Below are positions 3,273 to 43,615 of a DNA stretch of 64,000 nucleotides, piece after piece; the first letter of the stretch is position 1; the number at the start of each line of letters is the position of its first letter. The stretch is from a virus. The notes beneath the pieces are model-generated. The model was not told the origin of the DNA and searched no databases. It was given only the letters and a program-made list of their open reading frames with translations. Both the position numbers and the translations under genes were made by a program. Location of the stretch: the IMG/VR virus record IMGVR_UViG_3300030419_001484, positions 9,795 to 73,794 of that record; one strand, given 5' to 3'.

Positions 3273-3315
3273 AAACGAATCACCTTTAAATTATCTACTA
3301 TATTAAAATATTTTG

Positions 3316-3355
3316 AACCCTTGTAAGTCATTGATTTGCAAGGGTTTATTTTTTT
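3316..3355 (+). terminator. Intrinsic terminator hairpin containing an IHF-like site
   Basis: AACCCTTGTAAGTCA-T-TGATTTGCAAGGGTT followed by T-rich tract. Confidence 0.65.
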
Positions 3356-3357
3356 AC

Positions 3358-3386
3358 TTGACAAAGAAAGAATAGTATGATACTTT
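3358..3386 (+). promoter_or_regulatory. Sigma70-type early promoter
   Basis: TTGACA-N17-TACTTT with TG extension; AGAGAGA RBS downstream. Confidence 0.65.
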
Positions 3387-3420
3387 AATGGTAGAGTTAA
3401 TAAAAAAGAGAGAATCATAT

Positions 3421-3636
3421 ATGACAAATACAACATTTTCAACTTCTATCAATTTCGTCAATTTAGACGAAGATGGTATATTAGTATGTGATAATGCGAT
3501 TGTTTCTCTGGGTAACATCAGAGGTACTACAAGAGCAGAATCAGAAGCTGCAGCTATTTCAACCTTTGAGGTATTAGGGTTGTCTGCTGACCAATTGGTG
3601 TCGATTGAAACAACTAAGATAAAAAATAGTACTTGA
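3421..3636 (+). CDS. Hypothetical early protein
   Basis: ATG 3421 after AGAGAGA RBS. Confidence 0.6.
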   Translation: MTNTTFSTSINFVNLDEDGILVCDNAIVSLGNIRGTTRAESEAAAISTFEVLGLSADQLVSIETTKIKNST

Positions 3637-3678
3637 CATATTCTGTCAATGTGTTACTATAATAGTGTAAGTGATTCG
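3633..3678 (+). promoter_or_regulatory. Sigma70-type early promoter cassette with TTGACA/TGTCAA inverted repeat and downstream TGATTCG
   Basis: TTGACA 3633, TACTATAAT, TGATTCG 3672; near-copy at 32115. Confidence 0.75.
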
Positions 3679-3700
3679 TTAATAATATAGAGAGGTAAAT

Positions 3701-4096
3701 ATGGCTTATATTTCACAACAAGATAAAAAAGACCTTGCTCCTGCGATCAAGGCAGTTCTTAAAAACTATGGTATGAAAGGTACTATTTCGATAAATCATC
3801 ACAGTTCATTAGTTGTTACTGTTCAATCTGGTGTTCTAGATTTCAGTGGACATTTTAGTCATGGTGATGGTTACATTCAAGTTAACACTTATCACATAGA
3901 CAATTGGTATTCTGGAACTATCAGAAATTTTCTTAAAGACCTTGTAAAGGCAATGAAAGGAAACAAGTGGTATGACAAATCAGATGCAATGGTTGATTAT
4001 TTTGATACTGCATACTATGTTGATATTAATATTGGAAAATGGAATAAACCTTATGTCCAAACAAAAACTAATCCTCATGTAAAGGTGGCTGCATGA
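3701..4096 (+). CDS. Hypothetical early phage protein ending in VAA
   Basis: GAGAGG RBS, clean ORF. Confidence 0.75.
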   Translation: MAYISQQDKKDLAPAIKAVLKNYGMKGTISINHHSSLVVTVQSGVLDFSGHFSHGDGYIQVNTYHIDNWYSGTIRNFLKDLVKAMKGNKWYDKSDAMVDYFDTAYYVDINIGKWNKPYVQTKTNPHVKVAA

Positions 4097-4380
4097 TTGA
4101 TAGTATAATCAAAGCAAAGATAAAGGGGGATATAAGTATGTCAGTTCCTTTATATTTGATGATGAGTTATGCATATTACGAAGAAGATAAACCGATTGCA
4201 ACTGATGGCACTTTTGATGAGGTTTCAAAATTAATGTTAAAGAATTGGAAAAAGATAAAACACCATCACAAAGAACTAATAAATCTTGATAATCTAAAGG
4301 CTGGAACTTACTTGGGTAAATATCCAACAATAGTAAAAGATACTTTAGAAATGGTAAGAAAGAGATATAACAATGATTAG
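4093..4380 (+). CDS. Stand-alone protein resembling NAD-dependent DNA ligase subdomain Ia
   Basis: AYY-x2-D-x-P-x3-D-x2-FD motif. Confidence 0.5.
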   Translation: MIDSIIKAKIKGDISMSVPLYLMMSYAYYEEDKPIATDGTFDEVSKLMLKNWKKIKHHHKELINLDNLKAGTYLGKYPTIVKDTLEMVRKRYNND

Positions 4381-4483
4381 ACTTGCAATGTTTTTAATAG
4401 GGTTATATATTAGAGTTCTTATAGGTGCAACAGTGTTTATTTGGGGAAGTCTGATTATAATACATTTTTTAGGAATAATTTAG
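4373..4483 (+). CDS. Small membrane peptide (36 aa)
   Basis: MIRLAMFLIGLYIRVLIGATVFIWGSLIIIHFLGII fills the gap. Confidence 0.45.
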   Translation: MIRLAMFLIGLYIRVLIGATVFIWGSLIIIHFLGII

Positions 4484-4498
4484 AGAGGTATAAATATT

Positions 4499-4885
4499 AT
4501 GGTGAAAATAAAACGTAGAAGAAAACCAATGACTCCAGAACAACGTGCGGCCGCAGTTGAACGTCTTGCAAAGGCAAGAGAAGCAAAAGGGCCTGCACAA
4601 CATCAAAATATACATCCAGAGGTTCTTGCAAGACCAGACGACCATTTTCTATCTTTAAAAAATGTTAGGTCTTGGATAAAGAGTAACAAAGAACAATTGA
4701 GTTCACTCAGAGGTGAGGTCAGACGAGATGTAAAGGGCGCTAAGGCGAAGTTTCATAGTGTAGAGGGTTATATAAGACATATGCAACACTATCTCAAACA
4801 TGGTGATTGGATAGATAATGCATATGGAGAACATCAAGAAAAGAGTGTTAAATGGGTGACGATAAAGGCCAGTGGAGTAATATAA
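4499..4885 (+). CDS. Hypothetical basic phage protein
   Basis: GAGAGG RBS; KRRRKPMTPEQRAAAVERLAKAR. Confidence 0.75.
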   Translation: MVKIKRRRKPMTPEQRAAAVERLAKAREAKGPAQHQNIHPEVLARPDDHFLSLKNVRSWIKSNKEQLSSLRGEVRRDVKGAKAKFHSVEGYIRHMQHYLKHGDWIDNAYGEHQEKSVKWVTIKASGVI

Positions 4886-5250
4886 TCATAGGGCCATGGG
4901 AGTCTAAAACTCCCAAAGGTGGTAAGAATAGAGATCAGATAATCAAAGAAGAAATGGATGCGATTGATGAACTCTCTCAAAAAGCTATGATTAAATTAAT
5001 AGAAGTCCTTAAAGAATATGAGGTGAATATAACTTCAAAGGATTTCTATAGACATATTGGTTTTATGAATGAAACACTCAAAGCAAAACTATTTAAAGAA
5101 ATGGGTTATGAACACCCATTGTCTGATTTAGTAAATCATATAATAATCCCATCAATGACTAAGGATAAGAGGGATATATACACAAAGTTTAGAGCTGACT
5201 TAGTTCATGAACTTGTAGAATATTTGGAGCAAGATTTTGAAGAAGAGTGA
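4852..5250 (+). CDS. Hypothetical protein
   Basis: ORF in operon; start uncertain. Confidence 0.6.
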   Translation: MGDDKGQWSNIIIGPWESKTPKGGKNRDQIIKEEMDAIDELSQKAMIKLIEVLKEYEVNITSKDFYRHIGFMNETLKAKLFKEMGYEHPLSDLVNHIIIPSMTKDKRDIYTKFRADLVHELVEYLEQDFEEE

Positions 5251-5920
5251 AGTTAATTTTATTACACCATTTAGTCCGACTATTATGCAGACAGAGGTGC
5301 CAGATAAATTTATTAAACTAATTAATAAGATTGGTGATGAAGTTTTAAGTGATGATAAAAAATCTACACAATTTGATTGGTCAGATCATCTAGTAGGAAA
5401 AGTTCATAAAGAAGTTCAGATACCAATGATAAACCCAAACGATGCTAATTATTGTAAATCAATTTTAAAAGAAAATTGTCTTATGTATTTAAAAGAACTT
5501 ATTAATAAAGGTCGTGCATACATAGATAACATGATTTTACATCATCCAACAAAAGGTAACTTACATCCAACAGAATCTAATATTAACATAAGTCAATCTT
5601 GGATAGTAAGTCAATATAAGGGTGAGTACAACCCATGGCATCAACACAGTGGACATCTATCAGCAGTCATATATCTTAAAGTACCAAAGGGTATGGATGA
5701 GTTCTTTGAGAAAGAGGGTGAAGACCATTATCCTGTTGGTGGTGCAATACAGTTTATGCAAGGTGATAAACAAAACTTTAGAAACGATACATTAACATTT
5801 AGACCAGAGGTTGGTAAGATGTTAATATTCCCATCGTGGTTGAAACATTCAGTTTATCCTTTTGATGTAGACGGAGAAAGAAGAAGTATGAGTTTCAATG
5901 CATATTATGTGAGTAGATGA
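5237..5920 (+). CDS. 2OG-Fe(II) oxygenase-like protein (TIGR02466-like, HxH)
   Basis: YNPWHQH...SAVIYL...FPSWLKHSV...RRSMSFN. Confidence 0.8.
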   Translation: MKKSEVNFITPFSPTIMQTEVPDKFIKLINKIGDEVLSDDKKSTQFDWSDHLVGKVHKEVQIPMINPNDANYCKSILKENCLMYLKELINKGRAYIDNMILHHPTKGNLHPTESNINISQSWIVSQYKGEYNPWHQHSGHLSAVIYLKVPKGMDEFFEKEGEDHYPVGGAIQFMQGDKQNFRNDTLTFRPEVGKMLIFPSWLKHSVYPFDVDGERRSMSFNAYYVSR

Positions 5921-6423
5921 TGAAAATAATAGACAACATTCTAAGTAAAAAAGAACTTGATTATATAAAAACTAAAATGATGCATAATCAAGAAATGCCT
6001 TGGTACTTTAATGATGCGATAGCAACGGATCGTGAAAATGACCCCATGTATTATTTTACCCACAACTTTTTTCTTTCAAGAGGTAGCACTGATCAGTTTA
6101 AATATGAAAAGTCTGATTGGTTTCATATAATACGTTCAATATTGGATTTTATAAAACCTAAAGTATTGATTAGGTCTAAAGGGAATATGTATCCATCAAC
6201 TCCAACAATCGTTCATCATGATAGCCATATTGATCTTCCATATGAACATAAAGGTGCGATATTCTATGTTAATACAAATAATGGTATGACAGTGTTAGAG
6301 GATGGAACTGAAGTTGAAAGTATAGAAAATAGACTACTTCTTTTTGACTCTAGTAAAAAACACAATAGCACATCTTGTACAGATGCGAAAGTAAGAGTAA
6401 ATATTAATTTTAATTATTTTTAA
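5917..6423 (+). CDS. 2OG-Fe(II) oxygenase-like protein (HxD)
   Basis: HID...H...RVNINFNY. Confidence 0.7.
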   Translation: MMKIIDNILSKKELDYIKTKMMHNQEMPWYFNDAIATDRENDPMYYFTHNFFLSRGSTDQFKYEKSDWFHIIRSILDFIKPKVLIRSKGNMYPSTPTIVHHDSHIDLPYEHKGAIFYVNTNNGMTVLEDGTEVESIENRLLLFDSSKKHNSTSCTDAKVRVNINFNYF

Positions 6424-6434
6424 ATGAGACAGAT

Positions 6435-7274
6435 ATGATACTAATTGATATGAATCAGATTGCATTAGCAAATCTGATGATGAACATGAAAATGAATAAT
6501 AATAAAACCATAGATGAAAATATGGTTAGACACATGATACTTAATTCTATTCGTATGTATAGAAAAGAGCATCATAATGAATATGGTGAGGTGGTTCTTA
6601 CTTGGGACTCAAAACATTCATGGAGAAGAGATTATTTTCCAGAGTACAAGGCCAGTCGTAGAAAAGGTCGAGAAGAGTCAGACTTAAATTGGGAAGACAT
6701 TTTTGGAACTCTCAATAAGATACGAAATGAAATCAAACAAAACTTTCCATACAAATATATTGAGGTTTTCGGTGCAGAAGCAGATGACATCATAGGATTT
6801 TTGTGTGAAGAAAACAGAGATGAAAAGATTATGATAATCTCTGGTGATAAAGATTTTATTCAACTACAAAAATATCCAAATGTTACACAGTGGAGTCCTA
6901 TTACAAAGAAACAAGTCAACGGATTTGACCCCACTATATATTTAAAAGAACATATTTTAAAAGGTGATACAAGTGATGGTGTACCGAATGTACTGTCACC
7001 AGATAACACTTTTTCAGATGGATTAAGACAACGACCTTTGAGTAGAAAGAAAATACAATCTTGGCTCAATAGTGTAGAGGATTGTAATGATGAGGTGAAA
7101 AGAAATTATCAAAGAAACTTAACTCTGATTGACTTATCAAAGACACCAGAGGAACTAAAAAATCAAATCAGATTAGAATACAATAACGCACCACATGGTG
7201 ATCGTAGTAAACTCTTAAATTATTTTATGATATATAAACTCAAAGAGTTAACTGAAAACATTGGAGAATTTTAA
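6435..7274 (+). CDS. rnh: T4-type RNase H / 5'-3' exonuclease
   Basis: ILIDMNQI, WRRDYFPEYKASR, EADDII, SGDKDFIQLQ, GDTSDGVPN. Confidence 0.93.
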   Translation: MILIDMNQIALANLMMNMKMNNNKTIDENMVRHMILNSIRMYRKEHHNEYGEVVLTWDSKHSWRRDYFPEYKASRRKGREESDLNWEDIFGTLNKIRNEIKQNFPYKYIEVFGAEADDIIGFLCEENRDEKIMIISGDKDFIQLQKYPNVTQWSPITKKQVNGFDPTIYLKEHILKGDTSDGVPNVLSPDNTFSDGLRQRPLSRKKIQSWLNSVEDCNDEVKRNYQRNLTLIDLSKTPEELKNQIRLEYNNAPHGDRSKLLNYFMIYKLKELTENIGEF

Positions 7275-7275
7275 A

Positions 7276-7722
7276 ATGCCAGGAAATACATTATTATTTT
7301 CAGAAGTCCTTGATAAAGTACATAAGGCGAAAACAAAAGACCAAAAGGTCAAAATACTAAAAGAACACAATACACCAGCATTGAGGTCAGTATTAAAATC
7401 ATCTTTTGACCCAAACATCAAGTGGGTTTTACCAGAGGGTGAAGTTCCTTATAGAAAGAACGATGCACCTATTGGAACTGAACATACAACACTTGCAACA
7501 GAATCAAGTAAGTTATGGCACTTTATTAAAGGTGGTGACGGACAGACTCCTCAATGGAAAAAAGAACAGATGTTTGTTCAGATGTTAGAGGGTTTACATC
7601 AAACAGAAGCAGATCTTTTGATTAATGCAAAAGACAAAAAGTTACATCAAGTTTACAAAGGTTTATCTACAAACGTAGTGATGGAAGCTTTTGGTTGGAA
7701 TGAGGAATTTAAACTACCATGA
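7276..7722 (+). CDS. Conserved T4-like hypothetical protein
   Basis: LPEGEVPY...KEQMFVQMLEGLH; follows rnh. Confidence 0.7.
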   Translation: MPGNTLLFSEVLDKVHKAKTKDQKVKILKEHNTPALRSVLKSSFDPNIKWVLPEGEVPYRKNDAPIGTEHTTLATESSKLWHFIKGGDGQTPQWKKEQMFVQMLEGLHQTEADLLINAKDKKLHQVYKGLSTNVVMEAFGWNEEFKLP

Positions 7723-7937
7723 TGACAGATGAAGAAATAGAAACCGCAATTAAAAATATTGAAAATGGTAAGAGTATTAACTTTAATGATCAGTTTAAAA
7801 TACTTGCAACAATTTACAAAAAAATTAAACAGTTACATCAACAAACATATAGTCCACCAACAAACAATGATTTAAATAAATCTATAAATGATCTTGCAAG
7901 TCGTATTAGTATCATAGAGGGTAAGTTAAAAGGATGA
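7719..7937 (+). CDS. Hypothetical protein
   Basis: Overlapping start/stop junctions. Confidence 0.55.
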   Translation: MMTDEEIETAIKNIENGKSINFNDQFKILATIYKKIKQLHQQTYSPPTNNDLNKSINDLASRISIIEGKLKG

Positions 7938-8308
7938 ATATTGATGTTAATAAAAGGTTAGCGTCAAAAGAACAATACGAGTATTTAAAAAATTTACATT
8001 ATCAACCTTGTAATTTACCAAATGTTGGTGTGCATTATGGAGATATCAGATCAATCTGTATAAACAAAGAGTCATCAGCCCATGTGAGTGAAGGACACAT
8101 GAAATCTTTTACTCAACAATATAATAATAAAGTGGTACAAAATGATATACCAATTAATCAACCAACAGAAATAATAAATGAAACAGCGAGAAAAGTTTAT
8201 CTTATTTTAGATGGCTGTATGTTATTAGATGAAAAGATTGGTGATTACACCATACGTTTTAAAAAAGGTGTAGACCCAGATATAAAAAAAATAAGTGTTG
8301 ACAATTGA
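7934..8308 (+). CDS. Hypothetical protein
   Basis: Overlapping start/stop junction. Confidence 0.55.
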   Translation: MNIDVNKRLASKEQYEYLKNLHYQPCNLPNVGVHYGDIRSICINKESSAHVSEGHMKSFTQQYNNKVVQNDIPINQPTEIINETARKVYLILDGCMLLDEKIGDYTIRFKKGVDPDIKKISVDN

Positions 8309-8326
8309 AACGAATCAGTGTATATT
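8298..8326 (+). promoter_or_regulatory. Sigma70-type promoter with CGAATCA box in spacer
   Basis: TTGACA-N7-CGAATCA-N3-TATATT. Confidence 0.8.
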
Positions 8327-8360
8327 AGTAGTATAGTTAATAATAAAGAGAGAGAATATT

Positions 8361-8732
8361 ATGATAGTAGAACAAAGTGCGACAACATTAGAAGATGGAA
8401 TTGATACCCTAATTAATTCTGCAAAAGCAGATTATGTTAAAAGATATGGTAGTGATGTCAACTCAGATGTTGCAAAGAAAATGATAGGTCAGTTTAACGA
8501 TGGATTTGTTGTTAAGTCTGGTTCAAAGTATGTAAAAATTATGTGTGGTAATGGTGGAACGCCTGGTGGTTCATGCTGGGGGTTTGTTGTGAAAGAAGAC
8601 ACACCAAAATTTAAAAAGGGTGACATTTTAAAACCTGCTGGTTGGAATAAACCTGCTACTAACGCAGCTAGAGGTAATGTGTTAGATGGTAATTACGAAA
8701 TACATTGGACAGGGCCTGTATATCTGTCCTAA
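8361..8732 (+). CDS. Hypothetical early protein
   Basis: AGAGAGAG RBS; FKKGDILKPAGWNKPA. Confidence 0.75.
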   Translation: MIVEQSATTLEDGIDTLINSAKADYVKRYGSDVNSDVAKKMIGQFNDGFVVKSGSKYVKIMCGNGGTPGGSCWGFVVKEDTPKFKKGDILKPAGWNKPATNAARGNVLDGNYEIHWTGPVYLS

Positions 8733-8738
8733 AGGAAC

Positions 8739-8797: not shown

Positions 8798-8808
8798 ACA
8801 GAGAGAAT

Positions 8809-9000
8809 ATGAAACACAGAACAAAATTATTTTATATAAACATAGATGGTGAAGATACTTATCTAATCGCAGAGGGTGAAGATGAGGGTAAGGCTGCACA
8901 AAACGCTGTAAAAGAATTTCAGAAAATACAAAAGATATACGGAGAACAAAATCTTCCCATAACGAATATAACTCGTATGGATAAAATAGTTGACAATTAA
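8809..9000 (+). CDS. Hypothetical protein
   Basis: AGAGAG RBS. Confidence 0.6.
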   Translation: MKHRTKLFYINIDGEDTYLIAEGEDEGKAAQNAVKEFQKIQKIYGEQNLPITNITRMDKIVDN

Positions 9001-9018
9001 AACGAATCAGTGTATAAT
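8990..9018 (+). promoter_or_regulatory. Sigma70-type promoter with CGAATCA box
   Basis: TTGACA-N7-CGAATCA-N3-TATAAT. Confidence 0.85.
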
Positions 9019-9039
9019 ATAAACATAATAGAGAGAGAT

Positions 9040-9423
9040 ATGTTTATAGAATTTAGAAATACCAATAAAAAAAGACAACGAACCATTGAGGATGCTCTTT
9101 GGTTCGCAAAGTCGTATCTGTTACCTAGACACAAGATTGATGAAATTGAGATTGAGTCTGTAAATGGTTTACATGCAGATGGTGATTGTTATGATGCAGA
9201 TGATAGATCATTCATCATAAGAGTGAATAAAGACTTATCAAAAGAAGATTTACTTACCACAATCTTTCATGAATTTGTTCATATTAAGCAATTTATCAAA
9301 AAAGAGTATGGTGATATATTTGCAATAAATAACGATGAGGTCGCATACTTAGACAGACCTTACGAAATAGAGGCGTTTAAATTAGAAAAGGAACTATTAG
9401 AGGAGTACAACAATGTTACTTGA
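9040..9423 (+). CDS. HExxH metallopeptidase-like protein
   Basis: TIFHEFVHIKQ...PYEIEA. Confidence 0.7.
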   Translation: MFIEFRNTNKKRQRTIEDALWFAKSYLLPRHKIDEIEIESVNGLHADGDCYDADDRSFIIRVNKDLSKEDLLTTIFHEFVHIKQFIKKEYGDIFAINNDEVAYLDRPYEIEAFKLEKELLEEYNNVT

Positions 9424-12484: not shown

Positions 12485-12485
12485 A

Positions 12486-17913: not shown

Positions 17914-18221
17914 TAACATTAACTGAAAACGCAAAAGAATATCTAACAGATATGGTATCCAAGTCAGATGATACATATGCAAGATTATCTGTCAAGGGTG
18001 GTGGTTGTGCTGGTTTCGAATACAAGTGGGAAACTACAGACACAACCGAAAAAGGAACACTCATAGATGATGTCTTGGTGTTAGATACTATGGCTGAGAT
18101 GTTTCTACTTGGTTGCACTGTGGACTACATAAAAGAATTTGGTGGTTCTTACTTAACAGTTAAGAATCCTAACGCACACTCCTCATGTGGGTGTGGAACA
18201 AGTTTCTCAATTAAGACTTGA
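17910..18221 (+). CDS. iscA: A-type Fe-S cluster carrier (IscA/HesB family)
   Basis: GGGCAGFEY and SSCGCGTSF. Confidence 0.9.
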   Translation: MITLTENAKEYLTDMVSKSDDTYARLSVKGGGCAGFEYKWETTDTTEKGTLIDDVLVLDTMAEMFLLGCTVDYIKEFGGSYLTVKNPNAHSSCGCGTSFSIKT

Positions 18222-18248
18222 CAAACGGAACGAATCATGTTATAAATA
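18218..18248 (+). promoter_or_regulatory. tmRNA promoter: sigma70-type with CGAATCA box, overlapping a late promoter
   Basis: TTGACA-N7-CGAATCA-N3-TATAAATA. Confidence 0.8.
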
Positions 18249-18610: not shown

Positions 18611-18810
18611 GGGGGTGAAATAGGATCGACTGACGTTGAATAGAAAAGTGGAGAACTATCGGTTTACCTCGTATCGGTTAAAAAAACTAAACGCAAACGA
18701 TGATTTTGCACCTGTAGATTACGCACTAGCTGCTTAATCGTACTGAGTTCGGTGGGTACTTGGAAACAGAAACCCACCACAGTTTCAGAGTTTCGCTGAC
18801 GGGCGAAAAC

Positions 18811-18995
18811 GTGTCGTGCAAGGAAGAGATTCTCACCAGAGGGTCGAACTTGATTAGTTAGAGGTGGTACTCAGGCATGGTTGCAGAAATGCGTTGTGTC
18901 ACATCAATCTACCGATTGGAACTAGGTTCTGAAAGTATGAAAGAATGGTATCTTGGTCTTTCAGTTGTAGGTGTTAACCTTAGTCCTACCGACAC
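18811..18995 (+). ncRNA. Putative ~185-nt structured ncRNA
   Basis: GTGTCG/CGACAC closing stem; internal GATTCTC/GAGGGTC, GAAA-capped hairpin, CTGAAAG/CTTTCAG, GTAGG/CCTAC; GC-rich and ORF-free. Confidence 0.6.
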
Positions 18996-19117
18996 AAATT
19001 AATGATGCCTATGCGAATAGGTTCGGTTGAAAAAAATCGGTAAGATCATTAAGGGTCACTACTTAATAAGTGCGTGTGGGGTCATGGTTAACCCCACATC
19101 TTATAAATGGAGTTATT

Positions 19118-19333: not shown

Positions 19334-19924
19334 ATGTCACAATCAATAGATATCTATCTAACCTATTGTGCAATGAAGGCTCACTTTGGAAAAGGTGACT
19401 ATGACTTTGTTAAGTTCAATGGTAAGACAAAGGTATCAAGAGACTCTTTCTGGAAAAGAAAAGACAGAGTATGGTTCGTGATGTTGGGTAGAAAGTATAA
19501 CTCATCTCTCATAGAGAGTGTTGAAGATTATCTACTCGCAAACTTCTTGGTAGACAACAAAGGATATATAGGTAATTTTAATGACCAGAATTATTTTGAT
19601 TGGATGACTAGAATGTCAAGATTAGAAACATTATTTAAAAACGAAGCAACTAAATTATTTGAGGATGGGAGTTTAGACGTATTGAATGTTCCAGACAACT
19701 CTCACCCAAAACTTCTCAAAGAATATCTTGGTAAAAGAATATCACTAGAAACTATGGTGATACTAGATGGTATCTTTGACTACAGTTCAAAGTGGGATAA
19801 GAAAATGAATGATGATATCATGTGGCCTGATGTAAAAAAACTTATAGAAAATTATAAAAAGTTCTTGACATATCCACATGATTCGTGTAAGATGGTAGTA
19901 TTAAATTTAACAAAAATGGAGTAG
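19334..19924 (+). CDS. gp59: Helicase loader gp59
   Basis: YCAMKAHF...YDFVKFNGK...KRKD; ISLET. Confidence 0.85.
   Translation: MSQSIDIYLTYCAMKAHFGKGDYDFVKFNGKTKVSRDSFWKRKDRVWFVMLGRKYNSSLIESVEDYLLANFLVDNKGYIGNFNDQNYFDWMTRMSRLETLFKNEATKLFEDGSLDVLNVPDNSHPKLLKEYLGKRISLETMVILDGIFDYSSKWDKKMNDDIMWPDVKKLIENYKKFLTYPHDSCKMVVLNLTKME
19865..19893 (+). promoter_or_regulatory. Sigma70-type promoter with TGATTCG box
   Basis: TTGACA-N8-TGATTCG-N2-TAAGAT. Confidence 0.7.
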
Positions 19925-19928: not shown

Positions 19929-20120
19929 ATGGAAATGCCAGACAAATTAGTCATAGAACAACTCAGAGGTCAAATCAAAGGGTTGCAATATGACTGTGCA
20001 GAATTACAAAAGAAAAATGACGAACTTGCAGAAAGATGTAAGAAACTTGCATCTCGTCAACCAACTTGGCCCAAAGGGTATTCACCCAGAAGGTATACAC
20101 CGAAACATAAACATACATGA
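19929..20120 (+). CDS. Hypothetical coiled-coil protein
   Basis: GGAG RBS. Confidence 0.6.
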   Translation: MEMPDKLVIEQLRGQIKGLQYDCAELQKKNDELAERCKKLASRQPTWPKGYSPRRYTPKHKHT

Positions 20121-20911
20121 GAACGATAGTCTACGGAAACGGAAAGTCACGCCTGAAATGGAATGTGAATAATGGTTTGATACCAAACTCTGTTGTCACA
20201 TGGGGTTGTAACAGAATCTTTAATGGTAATGCAAAAATTGACAATCTTGTTTCCGTAGATTATCATGTGCAACATCTGATATACAAATCTGGATATGCAC
20301 ATGAGAATAAATGTTGGTTCAGTGATTGGAATATTCTACCAAGTAATGTTCCCTACATTGATATTACATTTGGTGGACAAAAACCTAATCTACCAATTAC
20401 AGAGAATGACAGAGGTGATAGACAAAACTTGGTAGTCAATGGTAAATTTACGAAACCAAATGAAGGATTATATATAACTTGGGTTGATGATGAGGACATG
20501 GTTGAAAGTATAGATTTTCCTAGAGAATGGAGTTCTGGAACAACTGCTATACACCTTGCGTGTCAGAATGGTGCAACAGAAGTATATCTCATGGGATTTG
20601 ATATTAGTGATGACCCAAGACATAACGTATATGAAAAAGAACAGAGTGAGTATCACTCACAAGTTTCTAACTTCAGTTTAAGACTTGACTGGGCTAGAGA
20701 ATTGAAAGTTGTATTTAATGAATTTAAAGATGTGCAATTTATATGGGCAGAACCAAATAAATCTATGAATAGATTTATGGAGTCATGTAATTCATCTGAT
20801 TTAAATGCACTTATAAATAAGTCAGTGACAGGTCACGATAGACTTATATTTGATAATGATAATTTAACATACGATACATACGAAAACATAAGGAGAAAAA
20901 TATGTCGTTAG
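20117..20911 (+). CDS. Conserved hypothetical protein, Maf/DUF115-like nucleotide-binding fold suspected
   Basis: YGNGKSR, WGCN, SSGTTAIHLA, VYLMGFD. Confidence 0.55.
   Translation: MRTIVYGNGKSRLKWNVNNGLIPNSVVTWGCNRIFNGNAKIDNLVSVDYHVQHLIYKSGYAHENKCWFSDWNILPSNVPYIDITFGGQKPNLPITENDRGDRQNLVVNGKFTKPNEGLYITWVDDEDMVESIDFPREWSSGTTAIHLACQNGATEVYLMGFDISDDPRHNVYEKEQSEYHSQVSNFSLRLDWARELKVVFNEFKDVQFIWAEPNKSMNRFMESCNSSDLNALINKSVTGHDRLIFDNDNLTYDTYENIRRKICR
20812..20819 (+). promoter_or_regulatory. T4-type late promoter upstream of gp32
   Basis: TATAAATA. Confidence 0.55.
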
Positions 20912-21786
20912 ATACGCTAAAGAGAAGTAATTCTCTAGATAAATTACTCAACGCAGTAAAAGAGGACAATGCACCTCAAGAGAAAAAATCATACATTGAT
21001 GAAAGACTATGGAAACCAGAACTGGATAAATCTGGGAATGGTTATGCAGTTATTCGTTTTCTTCCATCACCAGAGGGTGAGGACTTGCCTTGGGCGAAAG
21101 TTTGGAATCATGCATTTCAAGGCCCAACAGGTCAATGGTATATTGAAAACTCACTTACAACAATCGGTCAGAAAGACCCTGTGTCAGAGTACAACTCAAA
21201 GTTGTGGAACTCTGGTGTAGAGTCTGACAAAGAGATTGCAAGGAAACAGAAAAGGAAACTACAATACTTTTCTAACATTCTTGTAGTGAGTGACCCAAAA
21301 CACCCAGAGAACGAAGGTAAAGTATTTCTGTTTAGATACGGAAAGAAAATCTTTGATAAAATGATGGAAGCGATGCAACCAGCATTTGAAGATGAAACAC
21401 CTATCAATCCATTTGATTTTTGGGAAGGTGCAGACTTCAAACTAAAAATCCGAAAGGTAGATGGTTTCTGGAACTATGATAAATCAGAGTTCGCAGCTAC
21501 ATCACCTATCGCAGATGATGAGTCTAAAATTGAAACTATTTGGAAATCACAGTATTCTCTTGCAGAGAAACTTGATGCAAGTAACTTCAAATCTTATGAT
21601 GAGTTATCTACTCGTTTTCATGCAGTGATTTCTGGTACTACCAAAGTTGGTAACGTATCTGAAGAGATGGATGATGAACCGATTGCAACACCAGTTGTTG
21701 ATACTAAACCAGTGGAGTCACCTGTAACCTCAAAAGAGGAAGAGGATGACACTATGGATTATTTTTCAAAACTCGCAAACGGATAA
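20902..21786 (+). CDS. gp32: Single-stranded DNA-binding protein gp32
   Basis: GNGYAVIRFLP, WYIENSLTT, FDFWEGADFKLKI, acidic tail. Confidence 0.95.
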   Translation: MSLDTLKRSNSLDKLLNAVKEDNAPQEKKSYIDERLWKPELDKSGNGYAVIRFLPSPEGEDLPWAKVWNHAFQGPTGQWYIENSLTTIGQKDPVSEYNSKLWNSGVESDKEIARKQKRKLQYFSNILVVSDPKHPENEGKVFLFRYGKKIFDKMMEAMQPAFEDETPINPFDFWEGADFKLKIRKVDGFWNYDKSEFAATSPIADDESKIETIWKSQYSLAEKLDASNFKSYDELSTRFHAVISGTTKVGNVSEEMDDEPIATPVVDTKPVESPVTSKEEEDDTMDYFSKLANG

Positions 21787-31443: not shown

Positions 31444-31716
31444 ATGTCAGTTGCAAGTACTGTGTATGATAGCACCTGTGTGGTGTGTGATTATGTTAAC
31501 AATGTAGTAAGAAGAATGTGGTTAGGAATGCAGAGATCCAGACAATTATCTGCAAACTACAAGATATATGAGGAAATAAAAAGATTTGATGAAGATGCTG
31601 GTTACCATCTCGCAAATATGAACGACAATACGAACAAACATTATGAAATAGAGATGTCCAAGACAAAACGAATCACTTGGGCGTGGGATATGAAAAACGA
31701 CATAGACAACGAATAG
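31444..31716 (+). CDS. Hypothetical late protein
   Basis: TATAAATA at 31385, GAGG RBS. Confidence 0.6.
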   Translation: MSVASTVYDSTCVVCDYVNNVVRRMWLGMQRSRQLSANYKIYEEIKRFDEDAGYHLANMNDNTNKHYEIEMSKTKRITWAWDMKNDIDNE

Positions 31717-31754: not shown

Positions 31755-31792
31755 AAAAAGGGGTTGACAAGCCCCTTTTTTTGTTGTATATT
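31755..31792 (+). promoter_or_regulatory. Terminator hairpin with the -35 of an early promoter in its loop
   Basis: AAAAGGGG-TTGACAAG-CCCCTTTT; TTGACA-N17-TATATT. Confidence 0.75.
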
Positions 31793-32114: not shown

Positions 32115-32160
32115 TTGACATTATTTGTCATTGTGATATTATAATAGTGTAAGTGATTCG
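32115..32160 (+). promoter_or_regulatory. Early promoter cassette, near-copy of 3633-3678
   Basis: TTGACA-N5-TGTCA...TATAATAGTGTAAGTGATTCG. Confidence 0.75.
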
Positions 32161-32353: not shown

Positions 32354-32517
32354 TGGATTTAGAAACACTACAAGAAATAAAGTGGAGATTAGAAAGTGCA
32401 TCTAGGTTGTACCTAGAAGGTAACCACTCAGCATCGTCTTGGGCTGTACATGAGGTTATGGGTATATTGAAAGTAGTAGAAGAAAAACTACTTGACTCTG
32501 AAAACGAATCATGTTAG
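32353..32517 (+). CDS. Hypothetical protein (54 aa)
   Basis: TAATG coupling. Confidence 0.5.
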   Translation: MDLETLQEIKWRLESASRLYLEGNHSASSWAVHEVMGILKVVEEKLLDSENESC

Positions 32518-32520
32518 TAT
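32492..32520 (+). promoter_or_regulatory. Sigma70-type promoter with CGAATCA box
   Basis: TTGACT-N7-CGAATCA-N3-TAGTAT. Confidence 0.75.
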
Positions 32521-32546
32521 GTAAGTGAAGTTAAAAGAGAGAGAAT

Positions 32547-38027: not shown

Positions 38028-38215
38028 AAACACTTGCGTGGGTATTGGTTATACTCAATCAATCACAGACAATTAGTGATGATGAGTTGATATATCCAAG
38101 TCTACAGAAGTGTGAAATGTACGAAAAACAAATCAATCGACCACTTCAAAAAATACAAACATATACATTTTCTGCGTACTGTAAACCCACAGTAATCGAC
38201 AGAGTAGAAGAATAG
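38024..38215 (+). CDS. Small exported two-Cys protein
   Basis: MKTLAWVLVIL...YPSLQKC...AYC. Confidence 0.55.
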   Translation: MKTLAWVLVILNQSQTISDDELIYPSLQKCEMYEKQINRPLQKIQTYTFSAYCKPTVIDRVEE

Positions 38216-38754
38216 TGAGAATAATCCACTTCAATGAGCCATGGCAGCATTTTGAGGTGTATGATTTTATATCATATAATGAACATAAAGAGATAAAAAA
38301 ACTATTTAAAACTTTCCCAGATCCACGTTCAACTAATGATAGAATAAGTCACAAGATAGAAAATGAAATGTTGAGAGAAAGATTTAAAGAATTACTTAGA
38401 TTATTAAACGTGGAGTGGAACGAGAATAAACACTCAATACACATGGAATTAGACAAAATATCACCTAAATTCAAGTTTCAAATACACACAGATATATGGA
38501 CAAAGGTGTTGTCTCTCATCATACATATATCAGAGACAGGACATGGAACAAGGTTATATTCACCACATAAGTCATTTGATGAGTGGCGAACACTGGTTAG
38601 AACAATGAACTGGACACCAAGAGGTGGTGGTGGGTTTTTAAGAACAGATGAAACTTATCATAGTTTTGACACAATAGAGGACAATATGATGAGACAGACG
38701 ATACTACTAACACTAAGACAAAATAAAAACTGGATGACAGGAGAAGACAATTGA
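38215..38754 (+). CDS. 2OG-Fe(II) oxygenase-like protein (HxD)
   Basis: IHTD...GTRLY...TYHS...R. Confidence 0.6.
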   Translation: MRIIHFNEPWQHFEVYDFISYNEHKEIKKLFKTFPDPRSTNDRISHKIENEMLRERFKELLRLLNVEWNENKHSIHMELDKISPKFKFQIHTDIWTKVLSLIIHISETGHGTRLYSPHKSFDEWRTLVRTMNWTPRGGGGFLRTDETYHSFDTIEDNMMRQTILLTLRQNKNWMTGEDN

Positions 38755-39314
38755 AAAAAACTACATTATTTGACATACCAATATGGACAAACAAGATAGA
38801 TAATTTCTATTCAGTGAGGAAACAATTAGAGGATGAATTTAATAAATTTCCAGACACGAAGAATGAAATCAATCAAAGTGAGTATCAAAAGTTTTATACA
38901 AACAGACAAAAAGATAGACCTGGCCTAACACAAAAATTCACAAATATAATATCAAAAGAGATACAAAATTTAGTTTCTGACATAAACAAAAACAGTGATA
39001 TAAAGATAAAAGATTTGACTGTCAAAGATGTTTGGTCAGTGACTTATCAGACAGGGGATTATCAGTCTATACACAATCATGGTTCAACAGGTTTGTCTGG
39101 TTTATTATTCTTGGATAGTCCTATAGACGGCCCAAATTTGACCATAGTACAACCTTATAATAATTGGATGACGGACACTACTCGTTCTTTTTGTGCAAAG
39201 TTTGAAGAGGGTGCGATGGTTGTATTTCCTAGTTTCTTATTACATTCAAGTGACCCAAACAGATCACACAGACAAAAAAGAGTTATCAGTTGGGATATGG
39301 AGATAGTTCTCTGA
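38751..39314 (+). CDS. 2OG-Fe(II) oxygenase-like protein (HxH)
   Basis: HNHG...SGLLFL...FPSFLLH...RVISW. Confidence 0.8.
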   Translation: MKKTTLFDIPIWTNKIDNFYSVRKQLEDEFNKFPDTKNEINQSEYQKFYTNRQKDRPGLTQKFTNIISKEIQNLVSDINKNSDIKIKDLTVKDVWSVTYQTGDYQSIHNHGSTGLSGLLFLDSPIDGPNLTIVQPYNNWMTDTTRSFCAKFEEGAMVVFPSFLLHSSDPNRSHRQKRVISWDMEIVL

Positions 39315-40072
39315 TGTTCTTCAGAAAGAAGAAAACTGACGATATAATTCTTGATTGTTATACCTATAATCCTTATGCGTATAACTTTGCAAAAATAAAC
39401 TATGGATATCATTACATTCCAGAGTGGTGGAAAAAGACACCAAAAATTCTAGAAAAAAGAATTGCGACAATCAAAAACTGTCCAGCATTTGTTGAGTATT
39501 ACACGAAAGGTATTGTCTTACCGATGTGGTGTGAACTTATAATACAGATTGAACCAAAGGGAAGTGAACAATTATTTACTTGGAAAAGTTCGCATAAAAA
39601 GTTCGGTATCAATCCCCATATACAAGAACAATTTAAAGGGTTTTCAAAAGAGGATGGACATAATCTAAAAATGGTGTCGCCTTGGTATATAAAGTGTAAA
39701 GAGGAGATTTCTTTTACATATACACAACCAACTTGGAATCAGAGAGATACAATATTCGACCTTATATTACAACCAGGCGTGTTAAGTTTCAAATCAAATA
39801 TGCAGACAAATCTAAATTACTTCTTTCAACAAAAAAACACACAACAGAACATACACATACAACCATTAACACCAATGGTGATTATGCATCCAATATCAGA
39901 GAGAAAAGTAAAACTCAGACATCACTTTTTGACAAGTAAAGAAGACGAAGATGGAGCTCTATCTGGAATTAACAACGGAATGTTATTTGATAATTATCCA
40001 GAAAATGTACATAAAAAGGCAAAGAAATTATTTGAAAAAATAGATGAAGTAGATGGAGGGATATACAAATAA
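39314..40072 (+). CDS. Hypothetical protein of marine-phage accessory islands
   Basis: PEWWK...TIKNCP...SPW...PG. Confidence 0.6.
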   Translation: MFFRKKKTDDIILDCYTYNPYAYNFAKINYGYHYIPEWWKKTPKILEKRIATIKNCPAFVEYYTKGIVLPMWCELIIQIEPKGSEQLFTWKSSHKKFGINPHIQEQFKGFSKEDGHNLKMVSPWYIKCKEEISFTYTQPTWNQRDTIFDLILQPGVLSFKSNMQTNLNYFFQQKNTQQNIHIQPLTPMVIMHPISERKVKLRHHFLTSKEDEDGALSGINNGMLFDNYPENVHKKAKKLFEKIDEVDGGIYK

Positions 40073-41253
40073 TGAAACTTGCTGTAATTGGAAAGGGAAC
40101 TGTTGGTTCTTTGGCAGTTTTACATTTTCTAACATATACTGATTGGGATATAGATTGGGTATCTGACCCAAACACTCCAACCACTGCTGTTGGTGAAGGA
40201 ACTACAATTCGTGTTCCGTCTGCTCTTGCAAACTCTATATTAGAATTTTCTCATGATGATTTGATTGCAATGAATGGAACTCCAAAGGTGGGTATTTGGA
40301 AAGAAAATTGGGGTGGTGGAAAAAAGTATTTACATCCATTTCCCATTGATTTAAGTGGATTACATTTCAATGCGATTGAGTTTCAGAACAAAGTATTTGA
40401 GATGTTACAAGGTAATCAAAGAATTACAATGGTCAACGAGAGAGTGACAGATCCACAATCATATTCTGCTGATTACGTCATGGTGTGTTCTGGTTCTCCT
40501 AAAGATCTAGATGAGTATAATATACTTGACTCCATTGTGGTGAACTCTGCATATGTTACTCAATGTTTCTGGGATACACCGACCTTTAATTATACACTCA
40601 CACTTGCAAGGCCATGGGGTTGGGTATTCGGTATTCCTCTTCAGAACAGATGTTCAATCGGTTACGTTTATAATTCTGATTTTGTGTCTCTGAATGAAAT
40701 TAAAGAGGATGTGAAGAACGTATTTCAACAGTATAACTTGACACCAAGTGATACCACAAATCATCTGGAATTTAAGAACTATGTACGAAAGAATAATTTT
40801 ACTTCAAAAGTGGTCTATAATGGTAACGCATCATTCTTTTTAGAACCACTCGAAGCGACATCAACAACTACCTCTGATGACGTTTCACGTTTCGCATATG
40901 ATATGTGGAATGGTAATATAAGTGTAGATGAAGCGAACAGAAAACACTTACACAATATTGAAGAAGTACTTGATATGATCGCTCTACATTATTGTAACAA
41001 TATCGTCTATCGAAATGATTTCTGGGATAATGCAATACGGATTTCCTGTAACAGAATCAAAAACTCTTTAGACACTAATCCTGATTTTCAAAACCTTATT
41101 CATAATTCCATACAAGGAACAGAGAATATGTTATCTGTATTCGGATTGAGTGATCCTGTACATTATGGTACATGGTCTTGGAAATCTTGGAATATCAATG
41201 TAAAAAATCTTCAAATAAAAAGAACACTCAAATATTTAATGGGAGAGAAATAA
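40072..41253 (+). CDS. Flavin-dependent halogenase-like (tryptophan halogenase family) protein
   Basis: GxGxxG, VGEGT, GWVFGIPL, FLEPLEATS. Confidence 0.8.
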   Translation: MKLAVIGKGTVGSLAVLHFLTYTDWDIDWVSDPNTPTTAVGEGTTIRVPSALANSILEFSHDDLIAMNGTPKVGIWKENWGGGKKYLHPFPIDLSGLHFNAIEFQNKVFEMLQGNQRITMVNERVTDPQSYSADYVMVCSGSPKDLDEYNILDSIVVNSAYVTQCFWDTPTFNYTLTLARPWGWVFGIPLQNRCSIGYVYNSDFVSLNEIKEDVKNVFQQYNLTPSDTTNHLEFKNYVRKNNFTSKVVYNGNASFFLEPLEATSTTTSDDVSRFAYDMWNGNISVDEANRKHLHNIEEVLDMIALHYCNNIVYRNDFWDNAIRISCNRIKNSLDTNPDFQNLIHNSIQGTENMLSVFGLSDPVHYGTWSWKSWNINVKNLQIKRTLKYLMGEK

Positions 41254-41493
41254 ATGGGATTATTCAGTTGGGGTGGAAAACCCATAAAAGTAGAAACATT
41301 AGAACAAACACACAGGAAACTAGAAAGAGATATACTTACGTTAGAGAAGATGAACAAGGTATCAAACGTACATGAACATGAGATTAAAGAGAAGAAAAAA
41401 CAGAAACTTGCAATCAAAGATGAACTGGAACGTATGAAAAAGAACTTCAATGGTAAGACCTATGTAAAAGACGGAATAGAGAGTGACTTCTAG
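41254..41493 (+). CDS. Small coiled-coil protein (DUF465-like)
   Basis: LEQTHRKLE...KKQKLAIKDEL. Confidence 0.55.
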   Translation: MGLFSWGGKPIKVETLEQTHRKLERDILTLEKMNKVSNVHEHEIKEKKKQKLAIKDELERMKKNFNGKTYVKDGIESDF

Positions 41494-41686
41494 ATACGAA
41501 CTATTTAAAGGACATTACAAGATACTGAGAGAACAACGCAGACGAGAATCGATTTTTCGGACATTAGTTTCTGTATATCCATCTGGTCTATATCATCCTG
41601 TTTATTCTATGTGGAACTGTATGATATGGGCATGGAGTAATAGTGGAACACACAATTTAGATGGTAAAGGAAAGATAAGAAAGTGA
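41483..41686 (+). CDS. Hypothetical protein
   Basis: ORF in operon. Confidence 0.45.
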   Translation: MTSRYELFKGHYKILREQRRRESIFRTLVSVYPSGLYHPVYSMWNCMIWAWSNSGTHNLDGKGKIRK

Positions 41687-41855
41687 ACCACTATTCAACA
41701 ACATCATATAGAGAGTATTTTCGTATGAAAACCCATGACGAGAGATGGGTAAAACGTATGATGGAGAAGTATAATTTATCAATACATTATCCACGATGTG
41801 TAGAGTACGTTCTTAGAAGAGAGGCTTATCTAGAGTGGTTACAAGGAGGATATCT

Positions 41856-42473
41856 ATGAACGTGTTACCTTTATTTTCATCACCTGTCACAATGGATATG
41901 TATGAGTTAGACAGAGATGAAATAGAACTCATTAAGAGAGAACCATTTCACTCACACACATATGACCTTGATGGTTTGTCTAGTGATAATCGTAATATAC
42001 TTACAAAAACACCAAACTTATTTCATGTTGTTCATTCACATATAAAGAAATCACTGTATGATAATTTAAAAATAGTGGATAATATAGGATATAAAGTAAC
42101 ATCTTCTTGGTTGAATAATCATCCACCAAGACATTCTGCACATGGACATTCTCATGTGAATAGTATGTTTACAGGAGTATTATATGTAGATTGTCCTCAA
42201 GACAGTGGAGAACTTATATTCGTGATGCCCTATACAACACCCACATGGAACACAGGAACAATACAACCAAACATAAAAGAACATAACATATTCAATAGTA
42301 GAGAGTGGAGATTACCAACACCAACAGGTATGTGTATATTATTTCCATCACATTTACGACATGGAGTGACTACAAATGAAAGTGACCATAATAGATATTC
42401 AATAGGATTTAATATCATGTTGGAGGGTCACATAGGTGTAAGTGATGAAACAATTAATATAAGATTACTATGA
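41856..42473 (+). CDS. 2OG-Fe(II) oxygenase-like protein (HxH)
   Basis: HSHVN...GVLY...FPSHLRHGV...RYSIGFN. Confidence 0.85.
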   Translation: MNVLPLFSSPVTMDMYELDRDEIELIKREPFHSHTYDLDGLSSDNRNILTKTPNLFHVVHSHIKKSLYDNLKIVDNIGYKVTSSWLNNHPPRHSAHGHSHVNSMFTGVLYVDCPQDSGELIFVMPYTTPTWNTGTIQPNIKEHNIFNSREWRLPTPTGMCILFPSHLRHGVTTNESDHNRYSIGFNIMLEGHIGVSDETINIRLL

Positions 42474-42661
42474 CATATCCAGAAACAATCATATATACAG
42501 ATAAAGAAAGAATATACTGTAATGGTGACTTTGGAAACGATCACCCAAGAGTATATTATTCAGTACCCACAGAAGGGTTTGTAGTTTGTGGTTATTGTGA
42601 TACAAAGTATACTAGAGATGATAACTTTAAAGACTATACTAATACTTACGACTCTGAGTAA
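42470..42661 (+). CDS. zf-CHCC zinc-finger protein
   Basis: CNG...HPRVY...CGYC. Confidence 0.8.
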   Translation: MTYPETIIYTDKERIYCNGDFGNDHPRVYYSVPTEGFVVCGYCDTKYTRDDNFKDYTNTYDSE

Positions 42662-42949
42662 TCTATTCATAGTAGATGACGACCTAGTGAGAACAAGACC
42701 GATAGGGGGATATCGGAAAGAATATGGTACTTGATGGGAATGTATGGTATTTTCGGACACTATTTAAAAAGGTATAAAAAAACATAGAGTTGTTGTGTTC
42801 TTACTTTGTAGTCTATCGTCAGAATTACCCCACAGTCCCCCAGATTTTACCACAGACAGACAGTAGAAACGAATCAGTTGACAGGTATCAAGTGATAGTA
42901 TAGAGTATCAAGTCCTGTAAGTCTTTGATTCTAAAGGGAAATAAAACAC

Positions 42950-42978
42950 TTGACAACCACACGAATCTCTGATACATT
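42950..42978 (+). promoter_or_regulatory. Sigma70-type promoter with GAATC in spacer
   Basis: TTGACA-N17-TACATT, CGAATCT at 42962. Confidence 0.7.
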
Positions 42979-42982
42979 ATAA

Positions 42983-43183
42983 GTGTAGTTAGTAAAAAGG
43001 TTAAAGACAGACATTAGGCATGTGTTGATACTAACTTGTTGGTCACTCATTAACTGTCGTAAAAGCCCTCCTTTTTACTTTCTACACAATGGGTGTCCGA
43101 TCATGAGGACTCAAACAAACACATAACAAAAACTTAACCCAGACTGATGAGCGGTGGCATAACAAGTAGGTCTGGGTTTTTTT
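42983..43183 (+). ncRNA. Candidate ~200-nt small RNA
   Basis: Own promoter, 16-bp closing stem 42983-43000/43070-43087, terminator 43136-43183, no ORF. Confidence 0.55.
43136..43183 (+). terminator. Intrinsic terminator
   Basis: AACCCAGAC...GTCTGGGTT plus T tract. Confidence 0.65.
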
Positions 43184-43196
43184 GTGTCGAAAAGAC

Positions 43197-43225
43197 TTGA
43201 CAAGTATTACAGATTCGTGTATACT
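43197..43225 (+). promoter_or_regulatory. Sigma70-type promoter with GATTCG in spacer
   Basis: TTGACA-N8-AGATTCG-N2-TATACT. Confidence 0.75.
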
Positions 43226-43586
43226 TATAGTGTAGTTAATAGAGAGGTGATTCGATATGGTGTAAAAGGAAACGGAGATAGACACCCTCAACCTTTGGGA
43301 AGTTTATCGTTTGGAGAGATTATGGAGTTCGGAGTTCCAGCCTAGGATCGTTAGTGTAAAAGGTTACAACCCCAGATGAGGTGGGTCATTCGATAAAGGA
43401 GTGATTCATAAGAGTAGTCTGGGGTTGACTTGTATCTGGGGTAGGTGATTCGTTTCGGCCTTATACCCCCCTTAAATCTGTGATTCGTTTTGTAATCTAT
43501 AAATGTAATAAGTATCCAGAGAGATTTTTCAGAGTACCCCCCCCCAAAACTGAGCGGCTTTTATTTTCACTTCCCTAGATAAATAC

Positions 43587-43615
43587 TTGACACATATACC
43601 GAATCATGTTATAGT
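43587..43615 (+). promoter_or_regulatory. Sigma70-type promoter with CGAATCA box
   Basis: TTGACA-N7-CGAATCA-N3-TATAGT. Confidence 0.8.

Follow-up and report, generated by a model that had tools for sequence, protein, structure and literature searches.

The closest described counterparts of the element analysed here are the GcrA/CcrM promoters of Caulobacter crescentus. GcrA is a monomer tethered to region 2 of sigma70 through a flexible linker, and its boxes occur at -20±1 or -30±2 within the promoter spacer, or at +5 to +30 (PMC9976885); the flexibility of the linker thus allows both zones, spacer and leader, to work. The GcrA consensus, YGAKTCG, is a subset of the methylated GANTC sites, and the crystal structure of its DNA-binding domain (DBD) on TGATTCG shows contacts to each of the seven bases (PMC5887438). 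For instance, the C. crescentus promoter PcsM carries Gm6AATC at -22 to -18, and PmipZ has boxes at +4 and +12 (Haakonsen 2015, PMC4647560; Wu 2018, PMC5887438; PMC9976885). Here, we examined a 64,000-nucleotide stretch of viral DNA (hereafter, the window), which corresponds to bases 9795-73794 of a 73.8 kb IMG/VR contig (IMGVR_UViG_3300030419_001484, designated G000), by estimate ~48% of the phage genome, and in which the heptamer CGAATCA/TGATTCG recurs at a fixed place of promoters. Our tentative reading, to which we give slightly less than an even chance, is that this heptamer may be a functional part of phage early promoters, read by a host-supplied GcrA-type cofactor of the sigma70 polymerase.

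Five promoters of the window have exactly the structure TTGAC(A/T)-N7-CGAATCA-N3-(-10), with a 17-bp spacer and -35 elements starting at 8298, 8990, 18218, 32492 and 43587 (class A). Their seven box bases are invariant, while the other spacer bases vary. Three further promoters contain GANTC one base off this position, with TGATTCG at N8 (19865), AGATTCG at N8 (43197) and CGAATCT at N6 (42950); the latter two variants retain GANTC plus one flank. All eight had been listed in a preliminary description of the window, and each was recovered exactly as listed there. The promoters are as follows.

8298-8326, plus strand: class A promoter, TTGACA, N7, CGAATCA (8311-8317), gtg, TATATT, leading to the open reading frame (ORF) 8361-8732 (DUF7717-like).
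8990-9018, plus strand: class A promoter, TTGACA, N7, CGAATCA (9003-9009), gtg, TATAAT, leading to the ORF that runs from ATG 9040 to 9423.
18218-18246, plus strand: class A promoter, TTGACA, N7, CGAATCA (18231-18237), tgt, TATAAA, directly before the transfer-messenger RNA (tmRNA) gene and the manA RNA.
32492-32520, plus strand: class A promoter, TTGACT, N7, CGAATCA (32505-32511), tgt, TAGTAT, leading to small ORFs from 32547.
43587-43615, plus strand: class A promoter, TTGACA, N7, CGAATCA (43600-43606), tgt, TATAGT.
19865-19893, plus strand: flipped-word promoter, TTGACA, N8, TGATTCG (19879-19885), tg, TAAGAT.
42950-42978, plus strand: near-variant promoter, CGAATCT at N6.
43197-43225, plus strand: near-variant promoter, TTGACA, N8, AGATTCG, tg, TATACT.

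Judged from sequence, the TTGAC(A/T) element and the TAnnnT -10, separated by 17 bp and followed by a ribosome-binding site and a start codon, fit a housekeeping sigma70 promoter. Promoter 19865 lies within the 3'-terminal part of gp59 (19334-19924), from where it drives ORFs 19929-20120 and 20117-20911, then gp32 (20902-21786), and promoter 18218 directly precedes the tmRNA gene; the earlier claim that both the tmRNA and the gp32 operon lie behind box promoters thus stands. The box promoters are, as predicted, of the sigma70 type, and they precede small early-type genes as well as the tmRNA and the gp32 operon. Promoters 8298 and 8990 are near-identical across ~30 bp, as would be expected if the word had no function and were simply left from the duplication of one promoter cassette in the genome. 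Such an origin is very improbable, since the heptamer is invariant across the five promoters despite their differing spacer flanks, since the box survives a 2-bp slide and a relocation in relatives, and since the word recurs in unrelated phages with unrelated flanks, as described below.

Two other promoters carry the word in their leader (class B).

3633-3678, plus strand: class B promoter, TTGACAtattcTGTCAA inverted repeat, -10 TACTAT/TATAAT, TGATTCG (3672-3678) in the initial transcribed region.
32115-32160, plus strand: class B promoter, TTGACAttattTGTCAt, -10 TATTAT/TATAAT, TGATTCG (32154-32160) in the leader.

The two TGATTCG copies previously noticed just after a -10 element, at 3672 and 32154, indeed belong to these promoters, the first of which drives ORF 3701-4096 (phrog_10415). 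Both class B promoters (3633-3649 and 32115-32131) overlap inverted repeats based on the -35, TTGACAtattcTGTCAA and TTGACAttattTGTCAt, each of which may be an operator or a divergent promoter.

Box positions were counted from the -10 hexamer and so refer to predicted starts. The class A box lies at about -22 to -16, with GAATC at -21 to -17 and its centre at -19; the flipped copy of promoter 19865 centres on -18, and the class B leader copies are found at about +4 to +12, with centres at ~+6 to +9. These positions fall in the published GcrA classes of -20±1 and +5 to +30. Furthermore, the heptamer is a member of YGAKTCG, and TGATTCG is the very site crystallised with the GcrA DBD (PMC5887438), in agreement with the proposed likeness to GcrA boxes. 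Taken together, the identity of the word, the two positional classes, the single box per promoter and the relocation of the box in relatives constitute a specific match to GcrA, and suggest that the phage may borrow a GcrA-type factor of its host. An IHF site, another reading of AATCA considered by eye, was dropped because its TTR arm is missing.

The window contains 14 copies of CGAATCA/TGATTCG, against 4.6±2.1 expected from dinucleotide shuffles (maximum 11; 0 of 100 shuffles reached 14). They start at the following positions, which are also those given earlier.

CGAATCA on the plus strand: 3276, 8311, 9003, 18231, 31669, 32505, 42870 and 43600.
CGAATCA on the minus strand (TGATTCG on the plus strand): 3672, 19879, 32154, 43248, 43446 and 43481.

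The view that all 14 lie near promoters stands in part: 10 are in or beside promoters, but the copy at 31669 is inside an ORF and that at 3276 has no consensus -35. The heptamer is not equally frequent in coding DNA, with a density of 0.05 per kb versus 1.00 per kb in intergenic DNA. The generic GANTC shows 3.1 per kb in intergenic and 2.5 per kb in coding DNA, and it is mildly depleted over the window (171 observed, 219 expected).

All 7-mers were then ranked over G000 together with G013, a 95%-complete collinear relative. The heptamer is the third most intergenic-enriched of them, with 23 of its 32 copies in the 8.9% of DNA that is intergenic (p ~8e-18). The first two ranks are taken by ATAAATA and TATAAAT, which are words of TATAAATA, the late promoter of T4 type, and the heptamer outranks both the ribosome-binding word AGAGAGA (fourth) and the -35 word. 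Since the top two 7-mers derive from TATAAATA, the phage has a clear late promoter class beside the box-bearing early class. The ranking thus indicates that the box marks an early promoter class, used by the host polymerase and separate from the late one. The ribosome-binding sites of this phage family are AGAGAGAG(G/A), not AGGAGG (e.g. 8346-8354, 9031-9038 and 32531-32539), and this word might base-pair with CCUUUCU at the very 3' end of 16S ribosomal RNA.

To examine the conservation of the box, relatives were fetched via neighbouring proteins and not via the motif, which avoids circularity. Homologues of ORF 8361 with 94-97% identity (L411-L416) keep the promoter box; in one of them, L416, the box has slid by two bases (N5 versus N7), and the spacer is still of 17 bp. 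The promoter of the ORF 3701 homologues is more variable: L474 and L475 have the leader copy (class B), L478 has both forms, a spacer GAATC and a leader copy, L482 (82%) carries CGAATCA in the spacer at N7 (class A), and L479 and L481 have no box. The arrangements in L474, L475, L478 and L482 thus show that the box moves between spacer and leader at one orthologous promoter. In relatives with 92% gp32 identity, the box is kept in the tmRNA promoter (L001) and in that of the gp32 operon (L001 and L002), and the latter promoter retains a GANTC, with unchanged offset, in L075, L076 and L078 (68%). The same promoter as 43587 is found in L189. G013 possesses four class A promoters and several leader copies, and also, at 132435, 139922 and 140179 (L273, L274), the arrangement TATAG-TGATTCG, in which the word is fused to the -10 and occupies -7 to -1. 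These comparisons show that the box is kept under selection in the relatives. In another phage clade (L433, L435, L436, L438, L441, L445, L452, L453 and L455), the homologues of ORF 8361 are preceded by TTGACA promoters in which a palindrome, AAGACGTCTT, is conserved at the place of the CGAATCA box, ~60-100 nt upstream of position 1201. Spacer boxes that differ from lineage to lineage may be a device widespread among phages.

The architecture extends far beyond this phage. A scan of IMG/VR for TTGACA-N7-CGAATCA-N3-TAnnnT retrieved at least 119 stretches, and many contigs had 2-4 copies; the flanks were unrelated, the GC content ranged from 31% to 52%, and nearly all stretches lay before a ribosome-binding site and a start codon. 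A control scan with a scrambled heptamer gave 58 single matches. When TATAAT was required and the matches were clustered by flanking sequence into independent families, the observed geometry gave 17 families, the flipped word 8 and a box shifted by three bases 4. The 8 flipped-word families came from 110 raw stretches, mostly of one oversampled family. With a looser -10, at least 107 families were obtained, versus 33 for the scrambled word. The scans also revealed a heavily sampled phage family (L541-L650) with TTGACA-N7-TGATTCG-N3-TATAAT before a gene beginning MKLSD/E.

Two complete genomes among the carriers are G039 (49 kb, 45% GC), with four class A promoters, and G006 (195 kb, 39% GC), with seven. 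At 1e-4, blastp found only two proteins in common between G039 and G006 and none between G039 and either G000 or G013, and no plausible common reader protein was detected between G039 or G006 and G000/G013. Nor did gcrA (PF07750) have any match in 45 carrier contigs. Taken together, these two negative results make the reader probably a host factor; a reader carried by the phages themselves is probably not involved, and a host factor is the economical reading. One might suppose, on the other hand, that an early regulator encoded by the phage, whether activator or repressor, uses the word as its operator, and that each lineage obtained or evolved this arrangement independently. The conservation of another word, AAGACGTCTT, at the corresponding spacer position in other clades, the inverted repeats that the class B promoters overlap, and the fact that the contig is only half of a genome would all accord with such an operator. 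Nevertheless, we regard it as quite unlikely: G039, G006 and G013/G000 share no candidate protein at the above threshold, and yet use the same word, offset and orientation, and the word is asymmetric and present in one copy per promoter, unlike typical dimeric operators.

If the reader is a GcrA-type host factor, then GcrA bound to region 2 of sigma70 would grip TGATTCG via its tethered DBD, normally with the GANTC adenines methylated, and this contact would help the polymerase to engage and open the promoter. The mark, if needed, could come from the host CcrM or from a phage methyltransferase. In a host with GcrA, the phage would thereby transcribe the tmRNA, the gp32 operon and a large number of small early genes strongly and at once. 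Both the methylation of the box and its reader are features that we infer from the promoter sequences, and a coupling of infection to the host cell cycle, as formerly proposed, is speculation.

An extension of this scheme, which we consider unlikely, would turn the box into an epigenetic timer replacing the MotA/AsiA middle switch that marine T4-like phages lack. The virion DNA would leave the preceding infection fully GANTC-methylated, having been marked at a late stage by a phage methyltransferase, like that of G013, or by the host CcrM. Upon entry, host GcrA-sigma70 would fire the early promoters at once; replication would then outrun methylation, the boxes would be left unmarked, early transcription would fade and the TATAAATA late promoters would take over. 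This solution would have arisen convergently in many unrelated marine phages.

Several results weigh against a GcrA-type reader of a methylated box. As regards the phage genes, a search for homologues of gcrA and ccrM elsewhere in the genome had been suggested; neither gcrA (PF07750) nor ccrM-type (PF01555) genes were found in the contig, which holds ~48% of it. N6_N4 methyltransferases are not enriched among the carriers (5 of 45 contigs, versus 8 of 45 controls). G013 encodes a beta-class N6-adenine methyltransferase of 514 aa, a member of a broad orphan phage family, for which the CcrM model is the best NCBIfam match but a weak one (82 bits, versus a cut-off of 830). Furthermore, the -7 to -1 word class of G013 is not a described GcrA position.

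Some of these data touch on the possibility that the GANTC core acts as a methylation site without any GcrA, either through a direct change of sigma70 promoter strength or by protecting or flagging early promoters, with a replication-coupled switch as the result. The methyltransferase of G013 would be compatible with this, as would the mild depletion of GANTC elsewhere in G000 (193 observed/238 expected) and G013 (331/449); the corresponding values are 182/187 for G039 and 669/691 for G006. However, the conservation concerns all seven bases and not only the five of GANTC, and the near variants CGAATCT and AGATTCG keep flanks; the methyltransferases show no enrichment, as mentioned above, and the GANTC specificity of the G013 enzyme is only putative. 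A role of methylation alone is accordingly improbable.

The other unfavourable results for a GcrA-type reader concern the host. The contig has a GC content of ~35% and a T4-like myovirus gene set (gp32, gp5, gp6, gp8, gp59, RNase H and class II ribonucleotide reductase). The nearest isolates, by gp32, are the OM43 phage Melnitz (64%), the SAR11 phages Mosig and HTVC008M (~60%) and cyanomyophages (~60%). Because of this GC content and these isolates, the phage is to be classed, on its sequence features, as an uncultured marine T4-like phage and not a Caulobacter phage. The tmRNA gene is of the alphaproteobacterial type, and, in a comparison of its DNA with 401 sampled genomes of that class, a single 52-nt match appeared, in a 1.3 Mb genome that has no GcrA hit and is the sole one of its order. 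GcrA itself was found in 262 of these genomes, a tally that takes in the unpublished genomes G133 and G326, on which no other claim rests. Carrier fragments have also been binned in non-alphaproteobacterial metagenome-assembled genomes (MAGs; Glaciecola, Methylobacillus), binning being a weak host guide. Among small genomes of this class, both those that have a GcrA hit and those that lack one carry TTGAC-N8-CGAATCA at the chance rate only. A scan of bacterial genomes for the architecture gave 104 matches, mostly Clostridia consensus promoters, which is approximately the chance level for the number of such promoters and hence uninformative. Given the chance rate in the small genomes of the class, the architecture belongs to the phages and does not reproduce host promoters.

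Cultured alphaproteobacterial phages offer no further example, as the phiM12 group, P106B, phiM6, SIO1, RDJLphi1 and DSS3phi2 were all scanned and are without the design. The phiM12 group has 109-125 copies of CGAATCR, of which only ~4 per genome are in a TTG-N10 context, and P106B (NC_023566.1) and phiM6 (MH700630.1) have 0 and 1 copies, respectively, which suggests that these two phages avoid CGAATCR (the other records of this rhizobiophage comparison are NC_028945.1, NC_027204.1 and NC_041929.1). These phages of CcrM/GcrA-bearing hosts treat the word in opposite ways, P106B and phiM6 on the one side and the phiM12 group on the other.

These observations bring forward the main competitor of the GcrA reading, namely that the word is read by another host component, such as a different sigma70-associated factor or a polymerase that contacts the spacer, in a host that is perhaps OM43- or SAR11-like and without GcrA, the likeness to GcrA boxes being coincidental. 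The hosts of the nearest isolates, the tmRNA match in a genome with no GcrA hit, the carrier fragments binned with Methylobacillus and Glaciecola MAGs, the misfit of the -7 to -1 class of G013 and the failure of GcrA-positive genomes to use the architecture all speak for it. To our knowledge, no other host factor of this kind has been described. In addition, a 7-base word would match any of the four YGAKTCG words, in either orientation, by chance at ~8/16,384, and its positions match two GcrA classes as well (PMC9976885). Moreover, the cultured relatives from OM43 (Melnitz) and SAR11 (Mosig and HTVC008M) are entirely devoid of the box, and the few heptamers that they contain all lie within coding sequence. 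We therefore hold another host component to be doubtful, though worth keeping in mind. As for the GcrA-type factor, Pelagibacter belongs to a cluster reported without CcrM and GcrA (PMC2877005), and the absence of the box from phages whose hosts are either not alphaproteobacterial (OM43) or reported without GcrA (SAR11) fits with such a reader. The terminase of G039 is 62% and 59% identical to those of Rhizobium and Sinorhizobium phages, followed by enterobacterial and Vibrio phages at 40-43%. Together with the alpha-type tmRNA, this rhizobiophage-like terminase weakly points to alphaproteobacterial hosts.

Compared with the GcrA promoters of C. crescentus, the promoters of the window have the same seven-base word, one box per promoter, the same two zones and the sigma70 type. 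They differ in being phage promoters, with near-consensus TTGACA/TATAAT hexamers, a 35% GC context and a stricter N7/N3 geometry; the relative G013 additionally uses -7 to -1, and the present promoters are predicted from sequence. As in T4, strong host-sigma70 promoters would start the infection and conservation reaches beyond the hexamers, the box class being distinct from the TATAAATA late promoters. In the T4 middle promoters, which need the phage proteins MotA and AsiA, the MotA box (TGCTTtA-like) replaces the -35 near -30. In contrast, the -35 TTGACA is intact here, the box is at -19 and its word is unrelated. The suggestion of a MotA-box-like role can thus be retained as an analogy of role only: as a mechanism it fails, given an unreplaced -35 and a box located at -19, not -30. 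Searches for MotA_activ and AsiA gave no match in G000, G013 and G006, with control genomes equally silent.

The idea of wiring phage transcription to host cell-cycle factors has a precedent. Mascolo 2022 described CtrA sites in phiCbK-like and other phages, a gcrA homologue in phiCbK and ccrM-like genes in rhizobiophages, and a scan of alphaproteobacterial phages with a GcrA matrix, for which no positional signal was reported (PMC9437464). Unlike in those phages, the GcrA-type word is here fixed in position and among the most intergenic-enriched 7-mers (third), and the contig is without a regulator gene. In the literature searched, GcrA-box promoters are described only for cellular genes and no published account of the phage design was found; a search for the heptamer itself retrieved only unrelated primer sequences. 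If the GcrA reading is true, abundant ocean phages of several unrelated lineages start infection via an epigenetic reader of the host that has so far been known only from cellular cell-cycle promoters. Phage early transcription would then be tied to the state of DNA methylation and perhaps to the host replication phase. The reading would also account for the ability of marine T4-like phages to do without MotA and AsiA. The box could also serve as a signature to predict alphaproteobacterial hosts of uncultured phages. Since the promoters are short and well defined, the idea is directly testable.

The remaining copies of the heptamer have less regular contexts.

42870-42876, plus strand: CGAATCA, abutting the -35 of promoter 42878-42906.
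43248-43254, plus strand: TGATTCG, fused to a Shine-Dalgarno-like GAGAGG just before ATG 43257.
43446-43452 and 43481-43487, plus strand: two copies of TGATTCG within a 1.1 kb non-coding stretch, with no adjoining promoter hexamers.
3276-3282, plus strand: CGAATCA between ORFs 2928-3272 and 3388-3636, with TTAAAT at N3 and no consensus -35.
31669-31675, plus strand: CGAATCA inside ORF 31444-31716, without promoter context.

The copy at 43248 extends the Shine-Dalgarno sequence (GAGAGGTGATTCGatATG), and that at 3276 may be a weak promoter. The next promoter after 31669 (31764-31792, 95 nt further on) has no box. The non-coding stretch, 42661-43757 (1.1 kb), comprises four tandem plus-strand promoters and C-rich and G-rich runs. 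A hairpin followed by a T-run was noticed by eye at ~43139-43185 and was not reported by the terminator scan. The stretch had no Rfam match and no unusual folding (z = 0.21). Although it had been described as origin-like, nothing in it points to an origin, and it may rather encode a set of short early transcripts.

A short-query BLAST with a promoter of G006 found nothing. Contigs from RNA data of relatives with 90-99% identity are assemblies, some of which begin upstream of the predicted start, and are hence uninformative on transcription starts. The RNA genes behind promoter 18218 are the following.

18255-18737/18781: two-piece (alpha-type, alphaproteobacterial) tmRNA gene.
18791-18999: manA RNA.

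The contig also has a tRNA-Thr, and the permuted tmRNA was not detected when ARAGORN was run on the sequence. Two runs of a single study provide RNA-library contigs from close relatives in which position 18782 is joined to 19052, with three other letters in place of window positions 18783-19051; some strains are therefore without the manA RNA element after the tmRNA. Finally, a gene of the tryptophan-halogenase family (40072-41253; PF04820, E = 2e-33) stands amid phage genes and may be an auxiliary metabolic gene.

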